64,000 bases of DNA from Nemertoderma westbladi. Taxonomy: Eukaryota > Animalia > Xenacoelomorpha. The DNA lies in NCBI GenBank assembly GCA_032718475.1, contig JAUCBJ010007602.1, forward strand, positions 13,783-77,782. Reading direction: 5' to 3'. A program made the translations under genes and the position numbers. Position 1 is the stretch's first letter. The number at the start of each line of letters is the position of its first letter. The notes under the pieces were generated by a model that saw only the letters and a program-made list of their open reading frames with translations, ran no database searches and was not told the DNA's origin. Below, one piece after another: positions 2,706-64,000 of this stretch.

Positions 2706-2999
2706 GAACTGCGCATGCAACGGACAACATAACATACTACAATAAATACAATGAATTCCACTTCAAATCTTTACCATTTCCAATAATCCAATGTCGTTGG
2801 TCCCGATGACCAAAATCAGGGTAAACGATAAATAAACGACCCTGCGTCAGTTGAAACATCTGCAGGGTGACGCTGGACTCCACATAACACACGAGGAAAC
2901 ACAAATACCATTGCGTGGTTACAGTTGGTTTAAGGGGGGTCCATTTTCATTGTCGATAAATCACAGTTTAAAGGAGTTTGTCAACAGGATTAGAAGGGT

Positions 3000-21000: not shown

Positions 21001-21211
21001 CAGTACCAGAGCTAGTGCTTCAAACTTCTACCTCCCGAATTGTAAATCCTTTGAATCTGATACTTTCTTTTTTAACGGCATAAAAAATTGGAACGCTCTG
21101 CCTAATGAAATTAAAAACCTAGATAATCAACATTATTTTAAATCTGCAGTTAAATCTCATCTCCGTGTGCAATGTAAAAATAGGTACAATAGTTCTACAG
21201 TAAGTTATTAG
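18026..21211 (+). CDS. LINE ORF2: PHD finger, APE endonuclease, reverse transcriptase (no start codon; 5'-truncated)
   Basis: The frame is open from 18026: CPVC..CESC..HLKC..CNSC (C4HC3); HLNARSL, ISETWL, GDFN, LDHI, SDH (APE); [28 protein letters not shown] (RT). Confidence 0.92.
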
Positions 21212-42779: not shown

Positions 42780-43806
42780 TAATTGAAGAGATACGCCTAT
42801 TCCTACTATTGGAAGAGACGGTAACAATACCTGCAATATCCTACTGTAAAGTTTGTAAATCAAATCATAAATCCGACCTTCTCACCAAAACAGTAAACTC
42901 TAAGTAAGCGAATATATTGCAGTATCGATCTCTTATAACCGGTGAGGCAGAAAACAGTCTACGAGCAGACAAACTTCGATAAAACAAATCCCGCGCAGCG
43001 AATCCTAAAATCAGGCTGACTCACTGACGGACTAAGAGGCTCGTATACTTTGCCGCGGTGTGATTTATATGGTTGAGCAAAGGGGCGCTAGCTAGGTATA
43101 GAGCAGATATTTGGAGATGTCTAACTAGCGGGCAAAGCACAGTACGGACTAAGTTAATTTTATATATTTCGAGGTGTAAATAATTTCTAACGCGCGTGTG
43201 TTAATTCTGAACGGTCAAAAACAGTTTTGCTCCTTCACATATATAATTACTGGGTACGGTGTGCATTTACGAATATTCTAATTTTGTAACTTGTAGGTCC
43301 AATACTCACGAATGATAAGGTCCCTTCCCCTCTTGCGTATTTCCAGGACTCAAATTCAGGCATAAGGTTAATACTACGCCCAGAATTCGGCAATTTTAGG
43401 TACCAGGTCCCTGATACTAAGAAGAGATGTGTTAGTTTACTACTGTAGGCGTACGGGTACTAATAGCTATCCTGGCTCCTATCTAGAATTCTAGTCACCC
43501 AGGTAGTCCGGGTAACTTCCTATTAGGGCGTTGGCGGGGACACGGTAGATGTTAGTATATCCCTGATAGCCTCAATTTATTTGCGCCTAGTGTAAACTGC
43601 CCTACCGCCTGAACGGTACAATCCCAATTCAGGTGAAAACACAGCAACCCCCCTAGCCTACAAGTTCTGATGTAATGGACACTGTTGTACGGCAAATAGT
43701 CGCACACACACCTGTACTTAGCAAGAGTTAAGCGTACAGTTTGCTGCACCCTAACCAATGTGTATGCCTTGTACCGGTGTGCCTACGTCCTATCTGCGTA
43801 CTAGTA
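42780..43806 (-). repeat. Putative 3' LTR of element 2A (about 1027 bp; TA...TA ends)
   Basis: The left end TAATTGAAGAG is shared by three copies. The right end is inferred from the adjacent PPT and an imperfect inverted repeat (TAATTG / CTAGTA). Confidence 0.65.
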
Positions 43807-43838
43807 TCTGCTCTCTCTCCCTCCCCCGTAGGAATGTG
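43807..43838 (-). promoter_or_regulatory. Polypurine tract (43807-43827) preceded by an 11-mer complementary to the PBS (43828-43838)
   Basis: The minus strand reads CACATTCCTAC-GGGGGAGGGAGAGAGAGCAGA-TACTAG; the same arrangement occurs at 62449-62481. Confidence 0.7.
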
Positions 43839-44485
43839 AAGGTCTACTGTGGGTTTTCCTGAATCAAGACAGTACAGTCCCTATGATGTAATTTTAGGCT
43901 TGCAGCGTGTCACTACGTCTACCTCTTGATCTTTTGGTCTTATACTTAGGTAGCAAGGATCGAACGCTGTCTAACCTTTCAGGCGATGGGCGAATAACTC
44001 TAAGATGGTATTGCGGGTTGTCTCTCGTCTACATTCCCGTGATGTTCCCGTTCATTGCTGCGGCCCGATCTCTAGCCGGCCATCCTGTCCCTGAGTTTGT
44101 TCACCGTAGTGAATTCATAGTAAAACAGAAAAGCTGAGAGAATATTCTGACTTTATTACAGAAGACACAATTATAATACAATGTAATCTGAGAATAAACT
44201 AAGCACGACAGAATAAATCTGAGAAGTATAGATTGAAAATTGAAGATAGTGTGAGTGATAACTAATGAACGAATCGCACCTTTATATACTAAATTTGTGC
44301 TGCAATCAATCGAGAAAATTCTCGATTGTTCTATGGGTTCTAACAAGGTTTTAAAGATAGCTTATTGGTCCAGCTAATATATAACTTGCACGACATTGGT
44401 TACAATCAAATAACTACAGCCTTATTGGTACAGACAAATGCAATTAATTTGTAGCGGTTAATTTAAATGAGTTGAAATTCTGCAC

Positions 44486-44573
44486 AAAAAATAATTCGCA
44501 CTTACTAGGATTCGAACTCGATACCTACTACACATATAATTTCCAACGCTCTACCAACTGAGCTACTGAACCA
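44486..44573 (-). ncRNA. tRNA-like Pol III cassette inside element 2A (degenerate; not a functional tRNA)
   Basis: TAGCTCAGTTGGTAGAGC (A box and D-arm), GAGTTCGAATCC (B box), then TTTTTT; acceptor and anticodon stems do not pair; identical copy at about 63119-63206. Confidence 0.55.
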
Positions 44574-45396
44574 CTTGACCGATAGATACACAATAGATAG
44601 AACCAATACTAATGAGAACTCAAAGCAATCTTTACAAAGTTAATTCGAATAAAATAAAATTTTGAAAATCCACGGCATTTAGGGAATATAATTCTATACC
44701 GCTCCATGAAAACAGGATATTATCGTGCATAAAAATATACGGTTTTCACCAATAATCAATCAAACTATAGAATACTTAGGGCGTACTTACATATTTACAA
44801 TTAAATTTCAAACAATACTTCCTTTCTACGTAATGATTCGATACAAAATAATTACAAATTCAAACTTTACGTATTTAAGGCTTTACTAAGTAAGTACAAT
44901 ATAAATCTAAATTAAATTCACCAATATAAATCTATTGCATCTCAATATTGCATAAATTTAAACAATTACAAATACAAATAAATGAAAACAATAAGAAAGG
45001 CTCGCGAGTCTTCCATCTACTATTGCATCCCAAATATTGCATAAATTCAAGTAATTACAAATACTTTCGTACCTAAATGTAGATTGCATAAGTTTGGAAT
45101 AATTACAAATATGAGTCTTTCTGAGCACAAAATTTTCCATCTATAAAACTTTCTATTTCACTGTAAATACAAATACTGCTTATAAAATATAAATTGCATA
45201 ATATTCGGAACTCTTTAGGTAAGTTCGGAATAATCACAAATATAAAATATAAATTCTTACAAATATAAATCTTTCAAATATAAGTTCCTTCTAAATATAA
45301 ACACTTAAATTTTCTAAATATAAAACATATAATTCAAAATAAATCACTAATCATAAGAAAGGCCCACGAGTCTTCCGTCCACCCTTGCCCTCCCTT

Positions 45397-48300
45397 TTAT
45401 CGCTTAGTAGATCGAGCCCTGCCGCGTCCTCGAAAACTGCGCACAGGTGACTTTGCTCGCGATATGGGACTTGTGGGGCGAGTCACTGGTTTACTTGGGA
45501 CGTTGAGGGACGGTGCGACTATTTCCTCGCAAATTCGTCTATTTGGCATCCCAAAACCTCGACCAATTCCTCGTGACCGATCAGTTGTCGCTACAGTTGG
45601 TAGAACGTCTGGGAACTCGCGAAAGGCGGACGACGCAGACCCAAGAGTAGCTTGCGCCCCCTGTTGATCAGCTGGTGTATGTCCCGATCCTCCTACCGGT
45701 TCTCTTGGAAGTGATACCGTATCCCGAGTAACTCGAATAGTCGGCTCAACTCCCTTGCGTTCTTCTACATTAATAATTTTCTTTAATTGTTGGCCCACTT
45801 TCTGGACCCGTATGATCCTACCCTGTCCGTCCTCCCGAGGGTGACGTGCAGACGGCGCAACCGGAGTGGCTGATATATTCGTCGCCTCTAGGACCTCCTC
45901 TTCCTCGAATACGCTCGCTCGTATACGTTTGTGGTAAAACGCGGCTCGGTACGCCCATGCGACGGTTAACCAAGCTCCCTTGTTCCGCTTTTCAGTTCGG
46001 AAACGATCGAATTCACCATACGTAATCCGATTAACGACTTTCTGAAAATTCCACGTGTTTTTGTTATCTGGGTGAATCTGTAACAGATACTCGCGCACCA
46101 CTCGGAATCCGCTGTCGTGGGGCAAAATATCAACAACCTCGATAAGTTCGTCATATTGGGGCATAGCGGAGATATATCCTTCCGACATCATCGTCTGAGG
46201 GTTTACCGCCCAAAATCCGAGATGCGCTCTCATCGGAAACCGTCTTCTCTGTGCCGATACATGTTCGTCGGCTAAATCTTCCCACTCATCAAATAACTTC
46301 CTCACAAGTTTTACAGATTCGTGTTCATAAGGTATATCTCTCAGTTGGCATTCAGATGCTCGATGTCCCTTTATATTGCAGTAAGTACATTGAGCCATAA
46401 ATCTCCAGCAAGTATAAAAGGTATGAGACCCTTGATCCCCACACCATCCACAGATTAGCTGAGTCGTAGTAATGTGCTTTCCACTGCACTTTGCCATATG
46501 ATGTCCAGCGACGCCACATTTACTACACATCGTATTGGCAGGGTACCACACTCGTTCGTATATAAGATCTCCAATCGGTCGAGCGCTTCCTCCCATACTA
46601 TAATCGTAATCATCTGGGTCTATGGGTTGGTAGGTTTCTGAAGGTTGTAGGCAAACTATAGCATCTGTTGCTTCAAGTTGTCGAATCTCCGTCTGAGATT
46701 TCTTCGGGAGGTTCCTTTCAATCTCAAGAAGTTCCTCTAAAGGATCGTCGGCGATCGTAGTAGTTACTTCGAATTCATCACCAAGGTGACCGATAGGCGC
46801 GCGCGTCTGCCGTGATTCATCCGTAATTTCCACGATACGTTCTCCTTCATAGGGTAACAATGTAAACATAGATGGTCTTTCGATAAGAGATCCCGCACAG
46901 CGAAGATACACGTCTCGAAATATGCTAAATCCTGCTCGAGTAAAGGCATTACACTGAGCGTCGGAGTTGTAGAAGGGTTCAAGGAATCGTCTAAACACGT
47001 CGGTACGAATTCTCCCTTCCATGTAGAACGTATGATCTTCTCCGAGACAAAGTGGATGTCTTTTGAGAGTCCGAGACACAATGTCGGCGATTAGGCAAAC
47101 ATTCACTGACGACTCTATCGCTAAATAATATTGTAAGACCGCTCTTGGAGGTGACGTAATAGCCCAATACACGCATCCTCTCCATTTAAGCTGTGATTCA
47201 AACTCACTCATATCTGGAGTATCACCTTCTCCATAAGTTTCAATATACTTGTTCCTTTTACCTTCCTTATAATCCCAATTGAATAACAGGTAGGAAATGT
47301 ATCCAGTTCCAGTCTTCTGAGTATTATACTCACGAAAATATCCCTGTTCTATAGACCACAGAATAAGAGGTCGAGTGTCGACGTATGGTGTCGGTAGTCG
47401 GTCATCGCTGTCCGTCATGCCGGCGAAGTCGCTAATTAAATCCTCCCTTACTCCTGATCCAACCTTTACAACAGTTTTATCTAAAATCATGTTTCTTACC
47501 ATCTTCGGTAACATTCTAGCGTCAATATTACAAGCTTGGTCCATCTTCTTTACTATATCGGTGATAAGATGGTGTCGCTTTGTATTCGCTGGAGGTATCG
47601 GCATTCGTTTGTCGCTCCTCTGTCTACTGAAAACGTGCAGAACTCCGTCCGCCGCTCTAATCTGTATAGTCTTAGAAGTCAAACTTTGCTGATGACTGCC
47701 GCCCTCGTTATCGTAAAACATATAACCGTTTTCCTGAAACGATCTAAACGTCCTAGTCCATTCATCCAACAATTCTTCCGAAGGTTGCCAAATCTTCTCT
47801 ATATCCTTATCCTCATCGAAACGAATAACCTTACCTCGCCAATCTGCGGCAATATCCGTATCCGACTCGAAGGTTCCGATTCCAATCCATAAACGAATCG
47901 TCTTGGTTAGATATCCTTTCAGATTACTCGGAGCTATGTCGGCACCAGCTCTATCCAGTTCCTTAAAATCTTGGATATGAGGTGGAACGTTGTTCACGAC
48001 CTTTTGAGTAATATGTCTACGTAAATCATATATCTTACTCATATCGCTGAAAACAACTGCAGGAAGAAACTCCAAGTTTGAAATGATTTCTGGATGATCC
48101 ACGATGGGTATTTCGTACGTCGTATCCTGTCGGACTGGTATACTAATAGGGAAATTGAGTGTCGTACTCAATGGTTTCGTAGCTGAAGTACTATACGGTT
48201 GCATTTCTCTTGGCCTCTCCGGGGATGCAATCTGTAATCTCTGAATAACGTTTTGAGCAAAGTTTATGCTCTCGAAAACTTCCGGTGTCATCTCCTTAGC

Positions 48301-49122
48301 TGAAGTTTGATCGTGTGACGTCCAATGGCAAGGTAGGCTCGCGAGTCTTCCACCCCATTCTTCCATCTCACCTTTCTCGAAAGCCTTGTAGGCTCTGTAT
48401 AGGCTAAGAGCTTCTTTCTTTTCGCGGGTTGACTGATTCGCCTCGTCCAGCGTAAGTTCAAATACATCGGGTTCAACAACCTTAGGTGGGTAAATGACAG
48501 TTTCTCCCGCCTTTGGTCCGGTCATAGCAAATGAATGATATGGATTCGATAAAGGATACCCTCCTTCCTGGTAGCGTAGTTGTTGATGATTCGAACACCT
48601 CGCCAATATCGGTTCGGGATTTTCCTTATTCAAACGCATCGGAATCGCATTTCGTTGTTCGCGCATACAAGAACCGCATTGATAATAAAGTTTATAAACT
48701 GAAAATGCTTCCTTGGTTTCTCTATCGTCCCCTCGAGTTCGTCTGTAAAGATGCATTCCATCGAATTCATCGCGTACCGCGGGCATAGGTTCGTGCGCCT
48801 TTAGGTATTGCATGGTATGATACAAACGACTAATTTCAGTATCGGGGTCTTCGCTAATGTCTCCCGTATCACACAAAGCATCGTACGGGTAAAGTTCGTT
48901 GAAGGTTTGGCGCAAACTTTCGATTCTTTCGTTTAATGCGTTTTGCCTTCTCTTTAATACATTCGAGTCATATTTAGTTCTCGCGAGTTTCGCTGTACTT
49001 TCCGATAATTCTTTTATACCAAATATAGTGTAATCCTTGGCTCCAAATCTTTCGAATGGCGCTGCTGCCTCCTCTTGGATATCATATCCCCATCTCGGCT
49101 CTCCTTGTATCCCTTTCTCCAT
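45397..49122 (-). CDS. 1241-aa accessory protein: DEDDy-type (WRN/EXD/Mut-7-like) 3'-5' exonuclease domain plus three CCHC zinc knuckles
   Basis: MFYDNEG (ExoI, 47704-47712), TIQI, LPKMVRNMILDKTVVKVGSGVREDL (ExoII), YVDT, GTGYISYLLFNWDYK, QYYLAIES (ExoIII-like); CSKCGVAGHHMAKC, CGWCGDQGSHTFYTC, CTYCNIKGHRASEC. Confidence 0.85.
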   Translation of the reverse strand: MEKGIQGEPRWGYDIQEEAAAPFERFGAKDYTIFGIKELSESTAKLARTKYDSNVLKRRQNALNERIESLRQTFNELYPYDALCDTGDISEDPDTEISRLYHTMQYLKAHEPMPAVRDEFDGMHLYRRTRGDDRETKEAFSVYKLYYQCGSCMREQRNAIPMRLNKENPEPILARCSNHQQLRYQEGGYPLSNPYHSFAMTGPKAGETVIYPPKVVEPDVFELTLDEANQSTREKKEALSLYRAYKAFEKGEMEEWGGRLASLPCHWTSHDQTSAKEMTPEVFESINFAQNVIQRLQIASPERPREMQPYSTSATKPLSTTLNFPISIPVRQDTTYEIPIVDHPEIISNLEFLPAVVFSDMSKIYDLRRHITQKVVNNVPPHIQDFKELDRAGADIAPSNLKGYLTKTIRLWIGIGTFESDTDIAADWRGKVIRFDEDKDIEKIWQPSEELLDEWTRTFRSFQENGYMFYDNEGGSHQQSLTSKTIQIRAADGVLHVFSRQRSDKRMPIPPANTKRHHLITDIVKKMDQACNIDARMLPKMVRNMILDKTVVKVGSGVREDLISDFAGMTDSDDRLPTPYVDTRPLILWSIEQGYFREYNTQKTGTGYISYLLFNWDYKEGKRNKYIETYGEGDTPDMSEFESQLKWRGCVYWAITSPPRAVLQYYLAIESSVNVCLIADIVSRTLKRHPLCLGEDHTFYMEGRIRTDVFRRFLEPFYNSDAQCNAFTRAGFSIFRDVYLRCAGSLIERPSMFTLLPYEGERIVEITDESRQTRAPIGHLGDEFEVTTTIADDPLEELLEIERNLPKKSQTEIRQLEATDAIVCLQPSETYQPIDPDDYDYSMGGSARPIGDLIYERVWYPANTMCSKCGVAGHHMAKCSGKHITTTQLICGWCGDQGSHTFYTCWRFMAQCTYCNIKGHRASECQLRDIPYEHESVKLVRKLFDEWEDLADEHVSAQRRRFPMRAHLGFWAVNPQTMMSEGYISAMPQYDELIEVVDILPHDSGFRVVREYLLQIHPDNKNTWNFQKVVNRITYGEFDRFRTEKRNKGAWLTVAWAYRAAFYHKRIRASVFEEEEVLEATNISATPVAPSARHPREDGQGRIIRVQKVGQQLKKIINVEERKGVEPTIRVTRDTVSLPREPVGGSGHTPADQQGAQATLGSASSAFREFPDVLPTVATTDRSRGIGRGFGMPNRRICEEIVAPSLNVPSKPVTRPTSPISRAKSPVRSFRGRGRARSTKR

Positions 49123-49779
49123 AATTAGGGTGTAGTTACATAATCATTACTACTAGAGGGAATACAACAGAGTTTGTAGTTAGTTGTGAGGAGACGTGAG
49201 AGTTTCGTCTGCCCTTTGGGCTCGACAACGCTCTAACCTCCTACCCATAGCCTAAGATCTAGGGTTTCTTTAATGACACGCTGCTTCTTATCTAAAATTT
49301 TTGCCGAAATAAAAACGAATTTGGGCTAAACTGGCCGTGAGTCTAAAATACTCACTTTTTGATCCCAAACTATTATCAGAAAATAAGCAGTCAAGAATTA
49401 GTAATAAATATAGGGGAGTCTATTTTGACGTAACTTATTGAAACAAGACCGTGTAAAATTTTATTAAAATTTTAAGAAAGGCTCGCAAGTCTTCCTCTCT
49501 TGTTTCTCTAATTTTAAGTTCCACCCGACTGTACCCTGAAATCTATTCACTGGAGAAATTTTTAAAAATTTTTCAAATCCAAATGGATTGTCTAAAATTT
49601 CGAAAATGTCTCAATATTGTGAGTTCCAAGTAGAATTCCATTTCTTATACCTACAAATCCCGCTCCTATGTGACACATAAGGGTACTACCCTCAATGTTC
49701 ACATATAAAGACAATGGAATTCTACCGCTGTCCTTACTACGGTGTACAGGTACGTGGAAATCTATTTGTAAACTTCTAA

Positions 49780-52700
49780 TTATTTACTTGTATTAGGTGG
49801 AGATTTGTAGTCTCCAGACTCGTTACGAGTTTCTTCAAGAAGTACGAGACGTTGAGTCGGTCTGTCTACTGTACGACCGTCAATTGTCCGTACTGTCACA
49901 GTTCTTGTCACTCCATCCATAGATGGATGTGTGGCTAAAATGACACCTGTTATCCAGAAGCGTCTTTTTAGATTCACTTCTGCCAACAGCACGTGATCTC
50001 CCGGCTTTAATGCGCGGGTGTTATTGTACCATGTTGTTCTGGCAGAAATAGAGGGCAAATAATGGTTTTGCCATATTTCCCAGAATTTGTTAGCCAGTAG
50101 TTGCGTGATTTTCCACGCTTTTCTACCGTAACTGTCGCTTTCTATTGGAATAGAAATCGGCGTTAATGTCGTCGGTGCCTGCATAAGCAGGTGTGCCGGT
50201 GTTAAAGCAAACTGGGATTGTTTGTCATCGGGTACTAATACTATTGGTCTAGTATTTAGTATTGCCTCGATTTCAACAAACAATGTTGTCAGTTGGTCGT
50301 CTGTTAATATGTGGTTTACTGGAATGACCTTTGCCATTGCCGTCTTTATAGATCTAATCAATCTCTCCCAGACTCCGCCTCTCCAAGGACTATCTGGAGG
50401 ATTAAACTTCCAAACAATCTTGTGAGGTTGAAGTTCGTTCGAGATTTGATCATGATCTAATTTCTTAAAGGCTCTAGCAATCTCATTCCGAGCACCAACA
50501 AAGTTTGTCCCTTGGTCTGAGTACAAGCATTTTACTAGTCCGCGTCTAGCGATAAATCGCCGCAGTGCTAGTATAAACGCGTTGGTGGAAAGATCCATCA
50601 CACGTTCAATGTGAACTGCCCTACTGGACATACATGTGAAAATCAGTCCCCAGCGTTTTACTAGTATGCGTCCACGTTTCGTATGTATGGGACCAAAGCA
50701 ATCAATTCCAGTCTCTGTAAAAGGTGGCCTGAATGCTTGAAGTCGTGCTTGTGGTAGTTCACTCATTTCTTGGGTACCTATTCTAGAATGTACCTTTTTA
50801 CAAATAATACACGTACGTGTCACTGAACTTAATGCTTTACTGGGTCTAATTAATACAAATCTAGTACGTAAGTAGGAAAGACAGTGGTGTCTTCCAGCGT
50901 GTTTCAGATGTAAATGTGCGTCCAGTATCATTGCACGTTGTAGTTCGTGATGTTGCGGTATTATTATTGGGTACCTAAAGTTTGTGTTAAAGTCAATGTT
51001 TTGAAGCCGAGATTTATGACAAATCAAGCCATTATAAATAATCGGACTCCAACTCAGTATTGGTGACGACTTGATTGGTTGACCTTGATTTATAGATGTG
51101 AATTCGCGCGCGAAATATCGCAGTTGGTAATGGCGAATTAATTTAATCTCACACCTGTCAATCTCAGCCAATGTAAGTCGACGTGTAAAGTCACGTTTGC
51201 CTTTAACATATTGTACAAAACGTACAATCCACGCTAACTTTCGGCAAGCGTTTGACCAAGAGTCTGTTAAGTTTACAATGCGGTCGACGTAAGTATTTGT
51301 GACGTCATCAGGTAAGTCAATGGAGATTTTGGAAGGTTTTAAATTACTAGAAGGGCCCACGGGTCCGCCGGTAGGTATTCCCTTGTTGACTGTTGATCCG
51401 TCGGGGTCTACAAGTAATTTGTCCTTCTTTGTCTTCTTACCTTGATTGTCGGTACTTTGTAAGTCGATCGTTAATGGTGGTTTGAACTCTATGGGGTCAG
51501 CAGGTTTCGGTAAACTTATTTTCCTGCCGACATTAATCCCAGGTCTCACCATAGGTTGTAAGTTCGGTATGTCTCTTGAGCGCAAAGTAACACCTGTATT
51601 TACATTAGCGTAGGTACTACCCACATCTGCAATACATGAGGTTTCACCATGCTTATGGTTGCTCAAGTGTGTCAAAATTGGTAGTTTGTCAATACAAGGC
51701 CGCTCCAATAGGGAAACTGCGGCTTTATTGTTAGTCAATACATTACTAGTGTCTAGTCGACTGTCTAGTAATGTGTCTGGCGATACGTCTGGTAACGTAT
51801 CTAGTTGTTTGTCAATAGAAGGCCGCTCCAATAGGGAAACTGCGGCTTTACTGTTAGTCAATACATTACTAGTGTCTAGTCGACTGTCTAGTAATGTGTC
51901 TGGCGATACGTCTGGTAACGTATCTAGTTGTTTGTCAATAGAAGGCCGCTCCAATAGGGAAACTGCGGCTTTATTGTTAGTCAATACATTACTAGTGTCT
52001 AGTCGACTGTCTAGTAATGTGTCTGGCGATACGTCTGGTAACGTATCTAGTTGTTTGTCAATAGAAGGCCGCTCCAATAGGGAAACTGCGGCTTTATTGT
52101 TAGTCAATGTGTTACTAGCGTCTGGTGGAACATTTTGTGATATGTCTGGCAAAACGTCTGGTTGACCGTCTAGTAACGTGTCTGGTTGACCGTCTGGTGA
52201 TATGTCTGGTGTAGAAAGGCTCGCAAGTCTTCCTCTCTTGACCTTTGAAGTTATATCCTTCCATTTCGCCTTCGGTTTTTTCTTGAGTTTTGCCGCCGTC
52301 CTTTTCTTTGTATCGACGGGCATTGTTGATGTCGTTGGGGTAGGTAGACTCGCAAGCCTATCATCTGTCGTCGATGGAATCTCTAGCTGACTCGTCTTCT
52401 CCCCAAGTTCTAAACTCACCTTGTGGATTAGCTGCTCCTTGTGACTTATCATACTAGTTACACGTCTGTTATGTTTTGTCGACTGTAGTGTAGTATGGTT
52501 CACGTCGTGTGAAAAGGAATGAATTGAATTTATAGTTAATAAACTACATGTACTCTGTACATCGTCTTCCTCGTCACTTACGTCTAGTGTGCGCACAGGC
52601 GCTCGAGTATACCACCCTATCGGCGTTCTGCAGGCGTATGCGTTTCCTGCTACAACTGCCGATGGTCTGGTTTCCCACACCTGATGTAGGTTGAATTGGT

Positions 52701-55405
52701 CCGTCCCGATCAGCATTGCTACCGATCTATAATTGACAGGACATTCGGGTACACCAAGGTGTCTGAAATACTTACGGTCCTCCAGAGATTGTTCCGGCAC
52801 TGGACCTAGTAGGTTACTAAAGTCCTTCGTGGCCGCAAAGGTTAGATCTCTAAAGGGCAACAAAGACCTCTCCCTCTCGCTATGCTGCGATTTTGGAAGA
52901 AGAGAGTCTAAGTCCAACTTAACTCGTGTCACTGGTATTGCACGCTGGCCGTGCATACTACTTACTGTATAACTGACGTGTTTACCTTGTCTTAGATCCG
53001 TCACGACGTCAGCTATCTTTTCGTCCACGTAGCTATGGGATGAGGCTGAATCTAGAATCGCATAGATCCTCTTGCTCCCTTTTGTGCCAGTAACCTTAAT
53101 CGGGATTACACTGAATCCCTTCAGTTGATCCGTAGTCAGGAGCGCGATCGACGGTTGTTCGTCTCCATTGGAATATTCGTCATCGTCTTCTGATTCTTCG
53201 TCCGACGATCCGGATTGTTCTGAGAAGCAATCCTCAATATGTGTCACGAAGGTCGGAGTCGTTTTCGATTCTCGTTTTCGGTAGGCCGCATCGCATCTCG
53301 CTGCTGCTTCCGGGTGTTCCCTGGCGAAGCGTTTCGTCGGCGTGTGGCTGTCTGTGTGGAGCAGACCGTCATGGTTGCGTCCACAGGATGGACAAGTGTC
53401 GGTATTTGGGCAATCCTTGCGCACGTGTCCGTGTCGCGTACACCGCCAACAAGAGTCCAGTGGCCGTATCTGCAGCCGTCGTTCTTCCGAGTTCAACTCG
53501 CGAAATTGTCGACAACCTCGTAACTTGTGACCAATATACCGCTTACCTAGATGTTCGCAGTATTGGCAGCCGTTGAAGTCGGTGCTGAGTTGCTGTCTCG
53601 TCTGTTTCGTCCCAATGGGCGCAGATACTCTATTACCGTCTGAGAATTGTCGTGATTCCGTCGGTGCGGCGTAAGTGGCCGTCTTTGTGGATGTTGTCTG
53701 GGGTTTTTGTCGGTTGGAGGATGGCAGTGTGATCCCTTCTGCCACGATGTGCTGGTCGGTATAGTTAGATCGAGTTTCTACTACCGCCTCCCTGGATATT
53801 AAAAGGTACACATCTTCTAATTTTAGGAATCCTCCTCGCTCCTCTCGCTGGTATTCGACCTTCCTCCACTCCCGACGAAGTCGATGGTGGAGTCGTCCTA
53901 TTATCTTTAATAGAACTGTAGGGGTATTCCCGTAATCAAGTTGTCCAATTGATCTTAAGGTAGTGATAGCGTTCTTGATCTCGTCAGCCAGTTTTAGTAA
54001 GTCGACGGGTTTAGTGATAGCCCCTCCCTTACAGAGTTCCTCTATTACTGACCTGGCCATACTCACTGTACCTCCGTATATCGAAGTTAAACGATCGTAC
54101 GCTAGTTCGAAAGCGTCCGGTACACCAACGAAGGTCTCCGCCAAACGTTTAGGTTCTCCTGACAACGTTTGGAGCAAGTAATTGAACTTCTCCCGTGATG
54201 TAAAGGCGCACACGGCGATCTGGGATTCGATATAGTCTACGAAGGTATGCCAGTGTTTTGAGCTACCGGAAAACTTCGGTGGTTGTTGTACCGGCAATCC
54301 CTGTCTGGCTGCGAATTTCGCTATCTCCTCGGCAACGTTCAGAGTTTCGCGTCCTTGGTTGGTGACTTGGTTGATATCCCTTCTTGGCGCTTTTCCCTGA
54401 TACGATGTGGGGTTTGAAGGTACCGGTCTTTGTGGTTCCTTCTGGTGTCTATTGTGTTCGAATTCGGAATTTCTCGAACTGTCGGTTTGAACTTCCTCCA
54501 GACGCTCCTCGATCTGAGCCAACTTATTTACAACTGGTCGCAGAATGTCGGCGAACTGTTGTGTACTAATTGCGTCCGTTGGTTGTAACGCCTTCTGTGT
54601 TGGTGTATTCTGTGGAGGATTGTCTGCAAAGGAGTTGTCTGAACGCTCGCGTTTATATTCATCGGCCGCCCCTGTTCTAAATACCTCGCGTTTCGGGTAA
54701 TCCGACTCGCTCGAAGTACTACTGTCACCTGGATACGGTGGTCGACGTGCTCGAGTCCGTTGCGCCGTTCGAATCCTAACATTCCGTTTCGGAACATCGT
54801 CCACTGATCTCCGTTGTTCGGTAGGCTCACAAGTCTTCCTCGAAGTCGTAGATTGCGATGTAAATTGGTTGAATGGTCGCGTCTCCACTGTTCTCCGTTG
54901 TTCGGTAGGCTCACAAGTCTTCCTCGAAGTCGTAGATTGCGATATAAATTGGTTGAATGGTCGCGTCTCCACTGTTCTCCGTTGTTCGGTAGGCTCACAA
55001 GTCTTCCTCGAAGTCGTAGATTGCGATGTAAATTGGTTGAATGGTCGCGTCTCCACTGTTCTCCGTTGTTCGGTAGGCTCACAAGTCTTCCTCGAAGTCG
55101 TAGATTGCGATGTAAATTGGTTGAATGGTCGCGTCTCCACTGTTCTCCGTTGTTCGGTAGGCTCACAAGTCTTCCTCGAAGTCGTAGATTGCGATGTAAA
55201 TTGGTTGAATGGTGGGCGAATGACAGCATTTGAAACAACTGGCCTTGTCGGTCGAAACGTCATTGGGTAAGCGTAGTGTGTAACGGGTTTAGGTGTCGAC
55301 GGTGGACTCACCTGTTTAGTTGTCAGTAGTGCAGGTCCAGTCAACAAACTACTACGATCCGTAATCGGTGGGTTACTTACCTTGACTTTCGGAATGGGCG
55401 ACGAC
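49780..55405 (-). CDS. Element 2A polyprotein, C-terminal part: gag core, 3 zinc knuckles, protease, repeat spacer, integrase
   Basis: PKFSGSSKHWHTF; CQYC..H..C, CWRCTRHGHVRKDC, CPSCGRNHDGLLH; AILDSAS; HLHLKH..CIIC; GIDCFGP, SDQGTNF, GGVWERLI; FWEIWQNHYL. No YxDD RT motif. Confidence 0.92.
51680..52125 (-). repeat. 114-bp (38-aa) coding tandem repeat, about 3.5 copies, in the PR-IN spacer
   Basis: TNNKAAVSLLERPSIDKQLDTLPDVSPDTLLDSRLDTSNVL repeated. Confidence 0.9.
54799..55213 (-). repeat. 84-bp (28-aa) coding tandem repeat, 5 copies, in gag
   Basis: PFNQFTSQSTTSRKTCEPTEQRRTVETR repeated. Confidence 0.95.
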
Positions 55406-58282
55406 TAGGGTGGCACTTATTTTTCGAATTTTGAAATTCCATCGGGACGCCCCCGCAACCGGTTCCAATGAGCATAAAAACAACGTGTGTAAAAGGATTT
55501 TGAAAAATATTAATATTTAGAGGTGCCGCAACGAGGTCAAAGTTTGCTTATTTTTTGCAAAAATGGAAATCTATTTTTACTTATTTATAAATGTTCCAAG
55601 TGTGAAATTTACAGTTTTAGGCTTCAACATATTCATATTTAATATATATTCATATATAACATATCTAAATAACATATTTTGACTAACATTTTTGAGTCTA
55701 TAGGTCCCCCTCTTCCCGAGTATTAGCCCCTCAATGTTAGTTTGCAGAGGTCACGGTGGACTTGCGGGCGTCCGGAAACTTCCGGCGGTGCTCCTCGACA
55801 ACCTGAAGCAGGTACTGCCTTTGTGACTCGTCCTTAGTCAGGCAGAGATTGAATTCCTGCATCATGGCGACGCCGCGCTCCGCAAAGTCGTTCACAACTT
55901 TGAGGCGGCGAACGCGGCGGGCGCCGGCCAGGTAGACCTCGTCGGTGTGCCAATCCGCGGGGTCGCTGTCGAGGAACTCGCTGTCGAGGCCCATGGCGCG
56001 GAAGAGCTTCTTCGACGAGCTTGTTACAAAGTCGGCGAGGGACTTCTTGCCGACTCCATCGCTCGTCATGTCGACGTTGATGCGCCGCGCGGGATCGTCG
56101 CTGCCCTCCTCCTCCAATGCCTTCACCATGGCTCGCTTCGTCGCCAGCGACGTGCCGTCGTCGAAGAAGGCGAGGGCGACGAGCGACTCGCTGACATACC
56201 AGAGGTGGCGGGCGAAGACCTTGGCCGTCGCCTTCGCTAAAGCCTTGTCGTGGAACGCCACGAGGCTCTTGGCGAATGCCAAGTCGTTCGCTGGAGCGGA
56301 CGCTGCGAGCGGCGCGACGAACCACGCGGGGATGTAGGCCAGCACCGCGAACACCACGAAGCGCCGCAGTCCGTTCAGCTCCTTGGCTGTCAGCTTAAAC
56401 TGGGCCCGAAACAAGTAGATCTTGAGCCCGTAGATCACTTTGGCCATCCACCGCGCATGGTGGAGGGCACCGGGGCGCTGGAAGCGCACGCCTCGTTTCG
56501 GGACACCGCCGAGGACGATGACGGCCAGCTCAAGCAGCTCGCGATAATCGTCGCGTGGCTGGGCGTTGTCGAGGTGGCGGCGGAAGGTGGCAATCAGGTC
56601 GTCGCGGCTGTCCAAGAGCGCCGGGGGCGCTTCGTCGTCGGCGCCGACTGCATCCCACGCCGCGATGTTGACGAAGGCCCAGTTCTCCTTGAAGCGCTTG
56701 AAGAGGAGCACGTCCGGACCGGATGTCCCTCCCATGCACTCCTCGTAGGCCTTGGCGGCCACCAGCTCGTAGACGTGATGGCGACACGCCAGATGAAGCA
56801 CCTCGCGGCCAAGACGCTGCTCGATGAGCGTGCAGGCCCCGTTCGACGTACCGGTATTCGATGCCGTGGTGTCGAACGACAAAGCTGCCACCCGTTGGGT
56901 TATGTCCCAGTCGTCCAAGGCGTTCATCACCGCTGTCGCCTGGGCGTCACCGCTCCCGTTCGGGAGCTTGGGTACGGCGAGGAGCTTGGCTACTCCGTCG
57001 CCGGTAACCAAAACAGGCAGGCGATCCTCGCTCGGGCCACCGTCCGCGGCCGGGACGATTTTTCCGTCCCAATGGACCGTCAAGGGGACGTCTGGTGCGA
57101 ACGCTGCTTTGATCTCAGCGGCCGACACCTGGCGGAACTTGATTCGCTCTTTCCTGAACGATTCGCGGTTCATCACGACAGAAGCGGGGTCCACGCCAAA
57201 GCTCCGCGCGGCCGCAGATAGGACGTGCACCGCCTGTCGGTTGGACATCTTCGTCCGGTCCATCGCGGACGAGAGACCGACGTCGACGATCTTCGTCGTC
57301 GCACGACGCTTTGGTGGAGATGGAGAGGGAGCCGCCGACGTCCCTGGCTGGGCGTCGTCGTCGGAGTTATTGTTCGAGCTGGAGCTCGACGCCAGTTGGT
57401 ACCTCTCGTCAGCCTCGCGCTTGTTCTCGTCCACCTGACGGCGCCTCTCCTCCGTTCTCGTCATTCGCCGATGTTGACGCGCTTCCAGAACGGCCTGTTG
57501 TTCGTCCGTTCCCGCCATTGTACCGCGCCGCCCCTTCTCACGCTGTGCGAGGAGAAAAGCTTTGTCCTCCTCCAGGCGGATCAGCTTCAGAGCATCACCA
57601 TGAGTGATGTCGAACAGGTCGTCGAGTTTTGCCTTGAACTTCTCCTCGTTGGCGGTCTGAGTCGCGGAGCGCCGCCTGCTGCTCTTGTTCATGTTCCGCC
57701 ATTCGTCGAAGAGCTTGAGCAGACGCTCGCGGCCGCGCTGCTCCTTCTGGACCGGGATCCGGGCACGGTGCCAGAACGGGATGATCAGCTTCAGCGTCTG
57801 GGCCGCGGCATCCGACTTCGTCAGCTTGTCGTCGAGATGCCGATGCAGGAAGTACCCAAGTGCCTGTCGAATCGACGGCAGCTTGGAGCCGTGGATGTCT
57901 TCCTCGACATGCCCCAGGAGGTATACTGCGGTCTTTGACCGTGTACGAGTAGCACTAGCCATCTGTGGGTCAGGTGGGAAACGCATTATAGGTCAACTTG
58001 TATATTTTAATGTGTACAAAATGTGTTATTTAGTTCAAATGTAAACATATTAAAGCCTAAAAGGATATATTTCACACGTGGAAAATTTATAAATAAGTAA
58101 AAATAGATTTCCATTTTTGCAAAAAATAAGCAAACTTTGACCTCGTTGCGGCACCTCTAAATATTAATATTTTTCAAAATCCTTTTACACACGTTGTTTT
58201 TATGCTCATTGGAACCGGTTGCGGGGGCGTCCCGATGGAATTTCGAAAAAAACACAAAAAATGTCAAATAAGTGCCACCCTA
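55406..58282 (-). mobile_element. hAT-superfamily (hATm-like) DNA transposon, 2877 bp, apparently intact
   Basis: TAGGGTGGCACTTATTT...AAATAAGTGCCACCCTA termini with long subterminal inverted repeats (about 200 bp); 8-bp TSD GCGACGAC (55398-55405 and 58283-58290). Confidence 0.95.
55737..57986 (-). CDS. hATm-like transposase (749 aa)
   Basis: VHWDGK, FDTTASNTG, LACRHHVYEL, HHARWMAK, RHLWY and VVNDFAERGV motifs. Confidence 0.9.
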   Translation of the reverse strand: MRFPPDPQMASATRTRSKTAVYLLGHVEEDIHGSKLPSIRQALGYFLHRHLDDKLTKSDAAAQTLKLIIPFWHRARIPVQKEQRGRERLLKLFDEWRNMNKSSRRRSATQTANEEKFKAKLDDLFDITHGDALKLIRLEEDKAFLLAQREKGRRGTMAGTDEQQAVLEARQHRRMTRTEERRRQVDENKREADERYQLASSSSSNNNSDDDAQPGTSAAPSPSPPKRRATTKIVDVGLSSAMDRTKMSNRQAVHVLSAAARSFGVDPASVVMNRESFRKERIKFRQVSAAEIKAAFAPDVPLTVHWDGKIVPAADGGPSEDRLPVLVTGDGVAKLLAVPKLPNGSGDAQATAVMNALDDWDITQRVAALSFDTTASNTGTSNGACTLIEQRLGREVLHLACRHHVYELVAAKAYEECMGGTSGPDVLLFKRFKENWAFVNIAAWDAVGADDEAPPALLDSRDDLIATFRRHLDNAQPRDDYRELLELAVIVLGGVPKRGVRFQRPGALHHARWMAKVIYGLKIYLFRAQFKLTAKELNGLRRFVVFAVLAYIPAWFVAPLAASAPANDLAFAKSLVAFHDKALAKATAKVFARHLWYVSESLVALAFFDDGTSLATKRAMVKALEEEGSDDPARRINVDMTSDGVGKKSLADFVTSSSKKLFRAMGLDSEFLDSDPADWHTDEVYLAGARRVRRLKVVNDFAERGVAMMQEFNLCLTKDESQRQYLLQVVEEHRRKFPDARKSTVTSAN

Positions 58283-59957
58283 GCGACGACGTTGCTCTTG
58301 GCGGTATAAACTCGTCCGGAATAACAAACCTGTGTTCCGTCGCACCACGGATAGGAGAAATATCACTACTACCCGCAATCGAAACAGGTTCCTTAGTCGT
58401 AACCGGTGCAAACATATGAGTTACCTGTGGGAATCGTTGACACACGTCTTTTACTAATTGTCGTTCCCGTCCGGGTGCTCCTACGCTTCCTTCCTTCTTC
58501 CGTTCCTGAATTTGGCGATGTCTTACCTCTAACTGGTCCAAATCATGTCCGTCACGAGATCTCATCGATCTATCGCGCGCCTTTTGATCCAAATCTTCCT
58601 CGGCGTTCGCTAATTCTCTCGCCTTCTTCTCGAGTTCGAAATGAAGTTTCACTGTCTTCTCTCGTTGTTCCGTTTGTTGTCGTTGCGCCTCAAACTCCGC
58701 TTGTCGTATAGCGGATTGAGCTTTTATTTGCCGTGTTTTCATTTCGGCCCGCGCTTCCGAAACTAACCTTTCTCGTTGTAATTCTGCCGCTGCCGTTTGT
58801 CGCTCCAACTCGGCCGCTGCGTTTCGTCGCTCCAACTCGGCCGCTGCCGCTGCCGTTTGTCGCTCCAACTCGGCCGCTGCCGCTGCCGTTTGTCGCTCCA
58901 ACTCGGCCGCTGCCGCTCGTCGCTCTACCTCGGCCGCTGCCGCTGCCGCTTGTCGGGCAATGTCTAACTCTAACCTTTCTACTTCAGCTGCTTCTAATTC
59001 AGCTTGTTCCTGTAGATGAGAGATTCTTGCTATATTCGCAACGCGTAGCTTCTCTTCCTCTACTGCTGCTTGCATCACTAGAAGTTGAGCTTGTTCTTCC
59101 ATTTCTTGTCGTTGTCGGTGGAATTCTTGCTGTTGTCGAGCAACTTCTGACGTGACTATACTTCCCTCGCAGATTTCGCTACGAATACTTACCAACGATT
59201 GGTCCAGTATTCCCGGTGCCGATTCGATTCGTACGGGTGAAGTTTCCCTCGTATATTCCGGCACGGTTTCCCAATCTCCGACGTCTTCGCCGCACATACG
59301 TAAGTGGTCCGTCAGGTGTTTTAATTGTCCATCCAGTCGGTACAGTTCCTGTTCTTCCTCGGGTTGTAATAATTCGTCCGAAACTGACTCACCTAACAAC
59401 TGGTCCGCTTGTTCCTGTTGTATCTGTCTAATCGTCGACTTAAACTGAATCAGTTTCTCTCTAGTGATCATTAGTTTCTCGAGGATTCTAAGTTGAGTAT
59501 CCATGTCCTGTCTCTGTCTAGCTAGATCTTGTAGGCCAACTAGATTATCTACGGACTTATATACTTTACTCTGTACTCTAACCTGGAGGGTGTAGAACTC
59601 GAATCGAGACATCGGAGCGGTCAACCCGTCTAATATGCGTTGGCCTTCTCCAATACTCCTGGTAATATGCGCCATGTATCCACCGACGCTTCTAACCACA
59701 CTTTCTGTGCTTCCTGCTGAACTTACCATTTCCGTTTCCCTATATCTAGGTTGCGGAACAGTTAGAAAGTCCTCGGTCCTGCCGTCGCCTCGTACTACGG
59801 CATCCGGTACTCCCGTTGGATGTACTGGTGACGCACACGGTGTAGGTTCGGTAGGCTCGCGAGTCTTCCCCTGTTGTCCTTCCGCTGCTGACTTATCCGC
59901 GTCACATGAGTCATAGTCGGTTTGTGTATTCTTCGTATAGTCTTGTTTGTCACTCAT
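58283..59957 (-). CDS. Element 2A polyprotein, N-terminal coiled-coil gag part
   Basis: Removing the hAT element and one TSD joins ...PPRATSS to PIPKVKVSNPP...LLTGPALL in frame, giving one ORF of about 2430 aa. Confidence 0.9.
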
Positions 59958-60753
59958 TTCGGTAGTTGTAAGTCAAGTAAAGTGAGTGTCAAAGTATCGA
60001 GTTTACCGTATTTATCTAAACGGTACTAATTACAGTCTTATAAAATTAGCCTACCGGCCGATTTTATAGCAGATGGATAAAATTAGCCTAAACGGCCAAT
60101 TTTACAGCAAATAAATGTCACGGAATAAGTATATAATAAAATTAGCCTAGCGGCCAATTTTATAACAAATAAAATCGGATAACGATATGCGTTATCAAAA
60201 GGTAAATTAAATACAATAATACGGACTAATTCAGCAATGAACAAAGAAATCATACGGAATGCATAAATACTTGAGACAGTGGAACCCACAATAATTTTAA
60301 CTAATACGGTAATGCCTAACTTATTTATGCAACTTTTCGAACTCACCCACTCCAATAATTCTCCAGAAAAACAGATTCCCAGATACAAACCGAACGTGAA
60401 CCTTTCCGTTTTTAACGTTGCGGACGAAACGCGATTTTCCCAACCAAAGTTGTTGAGTTATCTATCTCCCAAACTTGCTAAACACGGTCTTGCTCCCGTT
60501 ACAGTCTAGAAATGAGTTCTGAATCCTGAAAAAACAAAAGAGTTAGGTTTTACTTTACGAAAATTTTGTACCGGTACAATATGGTATTTAAACCCTTTTA
60601 AACACCGGTATTCAATTCCAAAATATTTTACACGCGGTTCAAATCAAATTTTATTTCAAAAAATTAGCACTTAGCTAATCAAATACAAATTTTTACCTCA
60701 AAATACAAAATTTTCAAATAACTTTAGTCCTACCGAACCGTAGTTCAGTAAAA

Positions 60754-60764
60754 CACATTCCTAC
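60754..60764 (-). promoter_or_regulatory. Putative non-tRNA primer-binding site GTAGGAATGTG
   Basis: Immediately follows the LTR end (...CTTCAATTA) on the minus strand; does not begin with TGG. Confidence 0.55.
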
Positions 60765-61424
60765 TAATTGAAGAGATACGCCTATTCCTACTATTGGAAG
60801 AGACGGTAACAATACCTGCAATATCCTACTGTAAAGTTTGTAAATCAAATCATAAATCCGACCTTCTCACCAAAACAGTAAACTCTAAGTAAGCGAATAT
60901 ATTGCAGTATCGATCTCTTATAACCGGTGAGGCAGAAAACAGTCTACGAGCAGACAAACTTCGATAAAACAAATCCCGCGCAGCGAATCCTAAAATCAGG
61001 CTGACTCACTGACGGACTAAGGGGCTCGTATACTTTGCCGCGGTGTGATTTATATGGTTGGGCAAAGGGACGCTAGCTAGGTATAGAGCAGATTTGGAGA
61101 TGTCTAACTAGCGGGCAAAGCACAGTACGGACAAAGTTAATTTTATATATTTCGAGGTGTAAATAATTTCTAACGCGCGTGTGTTAATTCTGAACGGTCA
61201 AAACAGTTTTGCTCCTTCACATATATAATTACTGGGTACGGTGTGCATTTTACGAATATTCTAATTTTGTAACTTGTAGGTCCAATACTCACGAATGGTA
61301 AGGTTCCTTCCCCTCTTGCGTATTTCCAGGACTCAAATTCAGGCATAAGGTTAATACTACGCCCAGAATTCGGCAATTTTAGGTACCAGGTCCCTGATAC
61401 TAAGAAGAGATGTGTTAGTTTACT
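60765..61424 (-). repeat. 660-bp U5-side portion of the 5' LTR of element 2A
   Basis: Direct repeat of 42780-43441, directly abutted by another LTR copy at 61425. Confidence 0.9.
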
Positions 61425-64000
61425 TAATTGAAGAGATACGCCTATTCCTACTATCGGAAGAGACGGTAACAATACCTGCAATATCCTACTGTAAAGTTTG
61501 TAAATCAAATCATAAATCCGACCTCCTCACCAAAACAGTAAACCCTAAGTAAGCGAATATATTGCAGTATCGATCTCTTATAACCGGTGAGGCAGAAAAC
61601 AGTCTACGAGCAGACAAACTTCGGTAAAACAAATCCCGCGCAGCGAATCCTAAAATCAGGCTGACTCACTGACGGACTAAGGGGCTCGTATACTTTGCCG
61701 CGGTGTGATTTATATGGTTGGGCAAAGGGACGCTAGCTAGGTATAGAGCAGATTTGGAGATGTCTAACTAGCGGGCAAAGCACAGTACGGACAAAGTTAA
61801 TTTTATATATTTCGAGGTGTAAATAATTTCTAACGCGCGTGTGTTAATTCTGAACGGTCAAAACAGTTTTGCTCCTTCACATATATAATTACTGGGTACG
61901 GTGTGCATTTTACGAATATTCTAATTTTGTAACTTGTAGGTCCAATACTCACGAATGGTAAGGTTCCTTCCCCTCTTGCGTATTTCCAGGACTCAAATTC
62001 AGGCATAAGGTTAATACTACGCCCAGAATTCGGCAATTTTAGGTACCAGGTCCCTGATACTAAGAAGAGATGTGTTAGTTTACTACTGTAGGCGTACAGG
62101 TACTAATAGCTATCCTGGCTCCTATCTAGAATTTTAGTCACCCAGGTAGTCCGGGTAACTTCCTATTAGGGCGTTGGCGGGGACACGGTAGATGTTAGTA
62201 TATCCCTGATAGCCTCAATTTATTTGCGCCTAGCGTAAACTGCCCTACCGCCTGAACGGTACAATCCCAATTCAGGTGAAAACACAGCAACCCCCTAGCC
62301 TACAAGTTCTGATGTAATGGACACTGTTGTACGGCAAATAGTCGCACACACACCTGTACTTAGCAAGAGTTAAGCGTACAGTTTGCTGCACCCTAACCAA
62401 TGTGTATGCCTTGTACCGGTGTGCCTACGTCCTATCTGCGTACTAGTATCTGCTCTCTCTCCCTCCCCCCGTAGGAATGTGAAGGTCTACTGTGGGTTTT
62501 CCTGAATCAAGACAGTACAGTCCCTATGATGTAATTTTAGGCTTACAGCGTGTCACTACGTCTACCTTTTGATCTTTTGGTCTTATACTTAGGTAGCAAG
62601 GATCGAACGCTGTCTAACCTTTCAGGCGATGGGCGAATAACTCTAAGATGGTATTGCGGGTTGTCTCTCGTCTACATTCCCGTGATGTTCCCGTTCATTG
62701 CTGCGGCCCGATCTCTAGCCGGCCATCCTGTCCCTGAGTTTGTTCACCGTAGTGAATTCATAGTAAAACAGAAAAGCTGAGAGAATATTCTGACTTTATT
62801 ACAGAAGACACAATTATAATACAATGTAATCTGAGAATAAACTAAGCACGACAGAATAAATCTGAGAAGTATAGATAAATTAGTATAAGTGTAACTAATG
62901 AACGAATCGCACCTTTATATACTAAATTTGTGCTGCAATCAATCGAGAAAATTCTCGATTGTTCTATGGGTTCTAACAAGGTTTTAAAGATAGCTTATTG
63001 GTCCAGCTAATATATAACTTGCACGACATTGGTTACAATCAAATAACTACAGCCTTATTGGTACAGACAAATGCAATTAATTTGTAGCGGTTAATTTAAA
63101 TGAGTTGAAATTCTGCACAAAAAATAATTCGCACTTACTAGGATTCGAACTCGATACCTACTACACATATAATTTCCAACGCTCTACCAACTGAGCTACT
63201 GAACCACTTGACCGATAGATACACAATAGATAGAACCAATACTAATGAGAACTCAAAGCAATCTTTACAAAGTTAATTCGAATAAAATAAAATTTTGAAA
63301 ATCCACGGCATTTAGGGAATATAATTCTATACCGCTCCATGAAAACAGGATATTATCGTGCATAAAATATACGGTTTTCACCAATAATCAATCAAACTAT
63401 AGAATACTTAGGGCGTACTTACATATTTACAATTAAGTTTCAAACAATACTTCCTTTCTACGTAATGATTCGATACAAAATAATTACAAATTCAAACTTT
63501 ACGTATTTAAGGCTTTACTAAGTAAGTACAATATAAATCTAAATTAAATTCACCAATATAAATCTATTGCATCTCAAATATTGCATAAATTCAAACAATT
63601 ACAAATACAAATAAATGAAAACAATAAGAAAGGCTCGCAAGTCTTCCATCTACTATTGCATCCCAAATATTGCATAAATTCAAGTAATTACAAATACTTT
63701 CGTACCTAAATGTAGATTGCATAAGTTTGGAATAATTACAAATATGAGTCTTTCTGAGCACAAATTTTCTGTCTATAAAACTTTCTAAATACAAAATAAC
63801 ACTTTACAAATGAAACTATAAGAAAGGCCCACGAGTCTTCCATGTACTCTTACTTTCTATTTCACTGTAAATACAAATACTGCTTATAAAATATAAATTG
63901 CATAATATTCGGAACAATATACATTGCATAAGTTCGGAATAATATAAATTGCATAAGTTCGAAATAATCACGTAAATATAAAATATAAATTCTTACTAAA
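61425..64000 (-). mobile_element. 3' end of a second copy (element 2B): LTR 61425-62448, PPT and 3' UTR; runs off the right edge
   Basis: Matches 42780-45260 with scattered substitutions and indels. Confidence 0.9.

Follow-up and report, generated by a model that had tools for sequence, protein, structure and literature searches.

A candidate DEDDy exonuclease and zinc-knuckle gene in the env position of a BEL/Pao-type element of Nemertoderma westbladi

Background

A stretch of 64,000 nucleotides from the xenacoelomorph Nemertoderma westbladi (contig JAUCBJ010007602.1; hereafter the window, to whose positions all coordinates refer) contains a BEL/Pao-type retroelement with a lengthy open reading frame (ORF) downstream of its integrase, in the slot where an envelope (env) gene would sit. 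Since this frame appears to encode a 3'-5' exonuclease fused to zinc knuckles, the locus raises the question of whether such a gene is genuine cargo and, if so, what it might do for an element that has no recognizable reverse transcriptase (RT). We present evidence that the frame, termed ORF3, is real, selected cargo of the exonuclease type, a conclusion in which we place high confidence, and then weigh its possible roles.

The env-position gene and its homologues

As the initial annotation had proposed, ORF3 is one uninterrupted frame of 1241 codons on the minus strand (45397-49122), starting 657 bp past the 1874-codon frame for Gag, protease and integrase (gag-PR-IN; 49780-55404). The motifs that it had singled out, namely FYDNE (residues 469-473), the KVG block VKVGSGVREDL (552-562) and the YxxxE motif within YYLAIE (665-670), along with three CCHC knuckles, are all present where it had placed them. 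The main features of the gene are:

45397..49122, minus strand: ORF3 (1241 amino acids), with an uncharacterised N-terminal region, a DEDDy-type exonuclease region at about residues 440-690, a linker, knuckles at 866-925, a conserved segment at about 940-1000 and a basic RG-rich tail
47053..47802, minus strand: predicted WRN-type DEDDy exonuclease domain, with D471, E473, D561, Y666 and E670 (first codon bases 47712, 47706, 47442, 47127 and 47115)
46348..46527, minus strand: three zinc knuckles, also present in the homologue P0002

A search of 1.84 billion representative proteins recovered three matches, two of which were dropped as knuckle-only similarity to Gag-like proteins. The one retained, P0002, is an unnamed public protein of 558 residues from a single 7.5-kb contig of the European Nucleotide Archive; it aligns with ORF3 over 489 columns (E 1e-12) spanning the exonuclease, the three Cys/His knuckles and the segment that follows them, and displays the motifs DTE, D and a canonical YxxxD (YLRGD). 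A further homologue emerged within the window itself, in a second, divergent BEL/Pao element that spans about 1-6800 and whose integrase end is 41% identical to that of the first. Here too the exonuclease frame follows DUF5641; in a hidden Markov model (HMM) search of the whole window it came out top at 7.8 bits, above ORF3, and a BLASTP comparison of the two (E 4e-9) revealed a common YDNEG, ExoII block and YxxxES. The parts of this element are:

2..1633, minus strand: exonuclease frame, preceded by an in-frame stop (1634-1636) and continuing beyond the window
3000..6755, minus strand: degraded gag (DUF1759), protease and DUF5641, the RT, RNase H and integrase core being gone from this copy

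Its exonuclease frame has no knuckle in the part up to the window edge. The second element also contains GC-rich 95-bp repeats upstream of gag (7617-8441) and 70-80-bp repeats between the integrase end and the exonuclease frame (2299-2727). Word-seeded protein searches recovered no ORF3 homologue, and none turned up when contigs of metagenomes, viruses and prokaryotes were scanned using ORF3, P0002 or their alignment; tblastn gave just three plasmid matches at E 4 and none in phages. As judged by sequence similarity, ORF3 is a member of a family with two homologues, one of them inside the window.

The predicted exonuclease domain

Two methods place this family with the WRN/EXD2/Mut-7 branch of DEDDy exonucleases, as the initial annotation had surmised from motifs. 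An ESM Atlas search with residues 420-760 yielded 30 matches, of which 24 are members of the PF01612 set, with a score of 0.92, and the other six come from unnamed clusters. Likewise, hhalign scored the three family proteins at 87-92% against a reference set of 34 bacterial stand-alone WRN-like exonucleases, the seed of which matches WRN (E 3e-19) and EXD2 (E 1e-10), and at 76-80% against WRN-like subsamples of five; the controls reached at most 4.75% with 40 column shuffles, 2.8% with five PolA exonuclease domains and 0.2% with two RNase D-like ones. Among the three groups tested, the WRN/EXD2/Mut-7 type was hence the best profile match.

The likeness extends to the order of conserved elements, as ORF3 shares with this branch an ExoI DxE, an L-Q-I strand, an ExoII of the form LP...L.D..V.KVG....D, a VD, and a putative ExoIII of the form W...YxxxD/E. 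In ExoI, hhalign pairs D471 and E473 with GFDTE, and DxE is common to all three family proteins; in ExoII, K553, G555 and D561 are invariant in all five mixed alignments; and in ExoIII, Y666-x3-E670 aligns among the three family proteins. All four acidic positions and the tyrosine are retained in these proteins, which are 21-32% identical, the fourth acidic residue being glutamate in both window copies and aspartate in P0002. ORF3 departs from the WRN/EXD2/Mut-7 proteins in its low identity (<22%), two large insertions, YxxxE, and its carriage by an element, as well as in its 430-residue uncharacterised N-terminal region, three CCHC knuckles and basic tail. Because the support is of a remote kind (ESM features and hhalign), we file ORF3 as a remote relative of PF01612 and not as a Pfam member. 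We conclude that ORF3 likely holds a divergent WRN-type DEDDy domain with a predicted intact two-metal site (D471, E473, D561, Y666 and E670), and that the domain is probably catalytically active.

The knuckles are of the forms CX2CX4HX4C (residue 866), CX2CX5HX4C (891) and CX2CX4HX4C (912); a 90-residue piece containing them matched Pfam zf-CCHC at E 0.003, under the curated cut-off. The tail (45400-45580, minus strand) has 16 K/R against three D/E in its last 61 residues and includes GRG/RGRG motifs, which resemble Tudor-binding sites; it is missing from P0002. In the N-terminal region C149, C152, C176 and H179 form a Cys/His cluster, and an ESM Atlas search with the first 300 residues gave no usable match.

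Selection and spliced expression

Reads from four sequencing runs (three studies) were aligned to 46300-47860. Of 57 variable sites, the 40 with the strongest support comprise 30 synonymous and 10 replacement changes, corresponding to a dN/dS-like ratio (nonsynonymous to synonymous) of about 0.08-0.14 across copies (p < 1e-8, of the order of 1e-9), the outcome of a comparison that the initial annotation had suggested. Among these same sites, residues 421-700 show 23 synonymous against five replacement changes, and none replaces a catalytic codon; indels are likewise absent among the variants listed. One subfamily has five consecutive third-position changes across ExoI that leave the protein unchanged, E473 included, and more distant contigs align chiefly over the exonuclease. 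Deletion derivatives also occur, with joints 46838>48963 (run X3) and 46950>48983 (runs X1 and X2) that remove the exonuclease and keep the knuckle end; such derivatives map to 46838-48983 and 45537-46810.

Run X1 further contains two joints that connect a leader to ORF3:

49153..60346, minus strand: GT..AG intron with donor GTGAGT, whose excision takes out gag-PR-IN and connects the leader with ORF3 (joint 49152>60347 in X1)
60347..60525, minus strand: non-coding leader exon 2, delimited by the X1 joints and by reading of splice sites
60526..62618, minus strand: GT..AG leader intron (joint 60524>62618 in X1), within which this copy has a tandem duplication of 660 bp

Both joints have GT..AG borders when read on the minus strand, accompanied by branch-like CTAAC and by pyrimidine tracts. 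The ORF3 acceptor lies 30 nucleotides upstream of the ATG; the leader contains upstream ATGs. The depth of X1 climbs steeply toward the 3' end of the element, from which we infer a fit to poly(A) RNA. The joints imply that splicing took place, whether the sequenced molecule was RNA or retrocopied DNA, and ORF3 is likely made from its own env-style spliced RNA. The resemblance to env genes is confined to position and spliced leader: ORF3 shows no membrane segment and no signal peptide (maximum 19-residue hydropathy 1.38).

A number of observations weigh against the reading of ORF3 as a selected and separately expressed exonuclease. The Pfam comparison that the initial annotation had recommended found no exonuclease match to ORF3 above the curated cut-off, PF01612 included, and PDB sequence searches with ORF3 or a two-sequence profile found none either. 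AlphaFold models from one and three sequences had mean confidence (pLDDT) values of 30.2 and 34.2, too low to use, and Foldseek on these models gave no match at E 0.001. The ESM Atlas cluster shares 165 features with the query against the 170 of the tool's guide; the HMM of the bacterial set scores ORF3 at 5.4 bits, a low absolute value, where the top-scoring of 1000 shuffles reaches 3.7; and the register of ExoIII against the bacterial YAATD is correct in two of five mixed alignments and unaligned by hhalign, an instability due to the insertion preceding ExoIII. Given linkage among the variant sites and their selection by level of support, the p-values overstate independence, and the splice joints occur in X1 alone, one of the four runs, among the 15 of 50 joints listed, the run being tentatively classed as DNA. 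Set beside these, the two homologues, the purifying selection and the splice joints bear out the proposal of knuckle-fused BEL/Pao cargo in the env slot.

A BEL/Pao element without reverse transcriptase

The remaining parts of the element are as follows:

49780..55404, minus strand: gag-PR-IN frame, with gag (DUF1759, knuckles), protease (LDSAS), a low-complexity spacer of about 400 residues instead of RT/RNase H, and integrase with DUF5641
58283..59957, minus strand: N-terminal section of gag, beginning at its first ATG and ending at a transposon insertion
55406..58282, minus strand: DNA transposon within gag, with inverted ends of 221-247 nucleotides, an 8-bp target duplication and a 751-codon frame
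60765..64000, minus strand: upstream LTR-like repeat, continuing beyond the window and containing CCAAT boxes, TATA (62921-62914), an initiator-like site and AATAAA (62800-62795)
42780..45381, minus strand: downstream LTR-like repeat, with TATA (44288-44281) and AATAAA (44157-44152), cut at 42779 by a satellite
45382..45398, minus strand: candidate polypurine tract, purine-rich at the ORF3 stop and followed by TG

On Pfam, gag-PR-IN matches DUF1759 (E 5.7e-11) and DUF5641 (E 2e-20), which we take as BEL/Pao markers, and Integrase_H2C2 under the cut-off (E 1e-4). Two features had escaped the initial annotation, namely that the element is without RT or RNase H and that its gag is interrupted by a DNA transposon. 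The latter (2.9 kb, GC 61-64%) had no Pfam match and is presumably of the hAT type, or hATm-like; transposon-free gag is present in all four runs (joint 55397>58283). For RT and RNase H we found no Pfam match and no YxDD-type motif in the six frames of 44000-64000, and the gap between protease and integrase is filled by some 400 residues of low complexity, including 123-bp repeats. The summed depth of this spacer in runs X2 and X3, which is not a copy number, is comparable to that of its flanks (36,000-49,000), and the transposon's inner bins reach 67-336, a contrast that points to many RT-less copies. RT-bearing relatives may exist alongside them. In the gag-integrase frame 16 of 19 variant sites are synonymous (among the listed sites, 40 of 632 rows), which in our view marks a non-autonomous family in which the genes left over appear to be still under selection. 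The absence of RT/RNase H makes it a non-autonomous BEL/Pao derivative by the description of the virus-taxonomy committee ICTV (PMC8742986).

ORF3 had also been placed inside long terminal repeats (LTRs). Two direct repeats do flank the element (42780-45155 and 61425-63787), which are 98.3% identical over 2379 columns (22 substitutions, Kimura two-parameter distance 0.0094) and both contain CCAAT, TATA and AATAAA signals; however, as the upstream repeat leaves the window and a 27-bp satellite cuts the downstream one, the position is better described as between LTR-like repeats. That satellite (34429-42778, 307 copies) abuts the downstream repeat. The leader holds four CA-TGG primer-site candidates, none of which was recognised as a site for tRNA-Arg or tRNA-Gly, and searches for tRNA genes and Rfam families gave no match.

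Just upstream of the TATA region, both terminal repeats contain a tRNA-like stretch with A-box- and B-box-like sequences (63205-63140 and 44570-44505, minus strand), for which ARAGORN and Rfam gave no match; it resembles tRNA-derived LTR sequence of an earlier report (PMC10886601). A near-palindromic 14-nucleotide motif, AGACTYGYGRGCCT, occurs 14 times with at most one mismatch (chance expectation 0.04), is confined to the BEL/Pao element (44998-63838) and lies on the sense strand in 13 of 14 cases. Its sites fall in the terminal repeats, in the intergenic region and inside ORFs in differing frames, five of them in an 84-bp repeat. A hairpin or kissing-loop reading was dropped, because folding was no better than that of shuffles at seven of seven sites tested; the motif is possibly a protein-binding site on DNA.

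Proposed role and rival explanations

The leading mechanism in our estimate, albeit one to which we give slightly less than even confidence, is that ORF3 counters RNA silencing. The exonuclease would chew back unprotected 3' ends of small RNAs or of cut element transcripts, with the knuckles and basic tail binding RNA; the protein would act in trans in cells expressing the element, on precursors of small interfering RNAs (siRNAs) and PIWI-interacting RNAs (piRNAs) or on slicer products, while an autonomous relative would supply RT. The separate expression of ORF3 and its persistence in an RT-less family suit a function apart from the polymerase, on RNA within the cell rather than in proofreading within particles. 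One point against this mechanism is that mature piRNAs carry a 2'-O-methyl group, a modification that blocks such enzymes. Mut-7/Nibbler is described as trimming small RNAs (PMC5622571) and arenavirus ExoN as a viral 3'-5' exonuclease directed against host defence (PMC7968707), the latter being a precedent.

Alternatively, ORF3 could be a helper in replication, its knuckles recruiting it to the element's RNA inside virus-like particles, where the exonuclease would trim the primer or the mismatched or untemplated 3' bases left by RT, or finish cDNA ends for integrase. The knuckles are indeed nucleocapsid-like, the best, weak PDB matches of P0002 being to HIV nucleocapsid (E 0.18); WRN and EXD2 act on DNA; the failure to recognize a tRNA-Arg/Gly primer site after any CA-TGG of the leader means that priming may be unusual; and 3'-end processing of element RNA is proposed by Rodriguez et al. 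(PMC5408684). Yet the gene stands outside the polyprotein, apparently on its own spliced RNA, which leaves it no evident way to enter particles, the majority of BEL/Pao elements manage to replicate lacking any gene of this kind (PMC8742986), and the family is without RT, which together with the position outside the polyprotein weakens proofreading in particular. On balance we hold a replication role to be rather unlikely. Distinctly more doubtful is a binding-only decoy, in which the DnaQ fold was kept for binding RNA or silencing proteins after the Asp-to-Glu change and the large insertions had ended catalysis. The glutamate that both window copies have as their fourth acidic residue and the unstable ExoIII alignment would suit a decoy, as would the naming of EXD1 and Maelstrom as inactive derivatives in PMC5408684, but the four acidic positions and the tyrosine persist in three highly divergent proteins, P0002 has the canonical YxxxD, and the variants listed include no replacement of a catalytic codon.

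That the motifs arose by chance in a domain of another fold would account for the lack of Pfam, PDB and structure-based matches, but two independent methods agree on the PF01612/WRN type and the motif order is kept in three distant proteins, so that we consider it very improbable. We give marginally less credence still to the view that ORF3 was taken up from the host not long ago, or is a neutral passenger, and serves no purpose for the element. P0002 could be a cellular gene, and the comparable rotifer ORFs showed no departure from neutrality (PMC5408684); the low dN/dS-like ratio, the same slot in two divergent BEL families, and the dedicated splice acceptor of a gene that has no internal intron already largely refute this alternative. 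Even jointly, passenger and wrong fold retain only a slim chance.

Comparison with known systems

The Juno and Vesta elements of bdelloid rotifers are of the Gypsy type. These and the rotifer Athena/Terminon elements are described as carrying a DEDDy ORF (PMC5408684, PMC6431247), and that of Juno and Vesta is the nearest counterpart of ORF3 so far described. The Juno/Vesta ORF resembles ORF3 as a non-env third ORF after pol that encodes a DEDDy-type 3'-5' exonuclease with its acidic residues kept, one D-to-E change and no membrane segment. The rotifer elements encode protease, RT, RNase H and integrase, in contrast to the RT- and RNase H-less element here; the rotifer motif reads DEED and that of ORF3 DEDE; the passages that describe the rotifer ORFs show no knuckle fusion; and their reported neutrality contrasts with the purifying selection and splice joints of ORF3.

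With BEL/Pao elements (Belpaoviridae, PMC8742986) the element shares a DUF1759 gag, protease, DUF5641 integrase, terminal direct repeats and a third gene in the env position. It differs from them in lacking RT/RNase H, in repeats of at least 2.4 kb as against 0.2-1.2 kb, in having no recognised primer site, and in that the third gene is a predicted exonuclease instead of env (PMC8742986). The plant RLG_Sabrina_SA and RLG_Quinta (PMC9744471, PMC11302176) are likewise high-copy, RT-less families that have retained some of their genes and depend on an autonomous partner. What they retain is Gag or Gag-protease alone, whereas the present family, of the animal BEL/Pao type, also has integrase and a selected accessory enzyme.

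A literature search covering neither Repbase/GyDB entries, supplements nor two older nematode papers found no BEL/Pao exonuclease gene. Those papers on nematode BEL/Pao elements (Malik 2000, Ganko 2001) are said to mention extra domains. In passages of PMC3118150, PMC2774666, PMC9094657 and 10.1101/2025.09.22.674508 the term 'exonuclease' does not occur.

Other features of the window

15070-18060, minus strand: Gypsy pol whose C-terminal end weakly matches PWWP (E 0.005)
17972-21211, plus strand: LINE-type ORF with PHD finger, endonuclease and RT, back to back with the Gypsy pol
29193-31448, plus strand: uninterrupted 751-codon frame with a rhodopsin-family seven-transmembrane match over residues 34-215, apparently the sole host gene in the window

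Implications

The most far-reaching combination of these readings is a division of labour, in which a high-copy, RT-less BEL/Pao family borrows RT and itself contributes an active Nibbler-like exonuclease, guided by its knuckles, by which siRNAs and piRNAs are destroyed or mis-trimmed. We regard it in this complete form as tentative and on the whole improbable. If true, it would mean that an animal retrotransposon encodes an enzymatic suppressor of RNA silencing, and ORF3 would belong to a wider exonuclease-knuckle family that has yet to be described. Should the protein act in replication, it would represent a processing activity not known to be used in LTR reverse transcription. The finding extends exonuclease cargo of retrotransposons from bdelloid rotifers to a second LTR superfamily and adds to the rotifer case purifying selection, a dedicated env-style splice, a putative RNA-binding module and persistence without RT. 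It thereby provides a concrete protein with which to ask if small-RNA silencing is opposed by enzymes that animal retrotransposons themselves encode.

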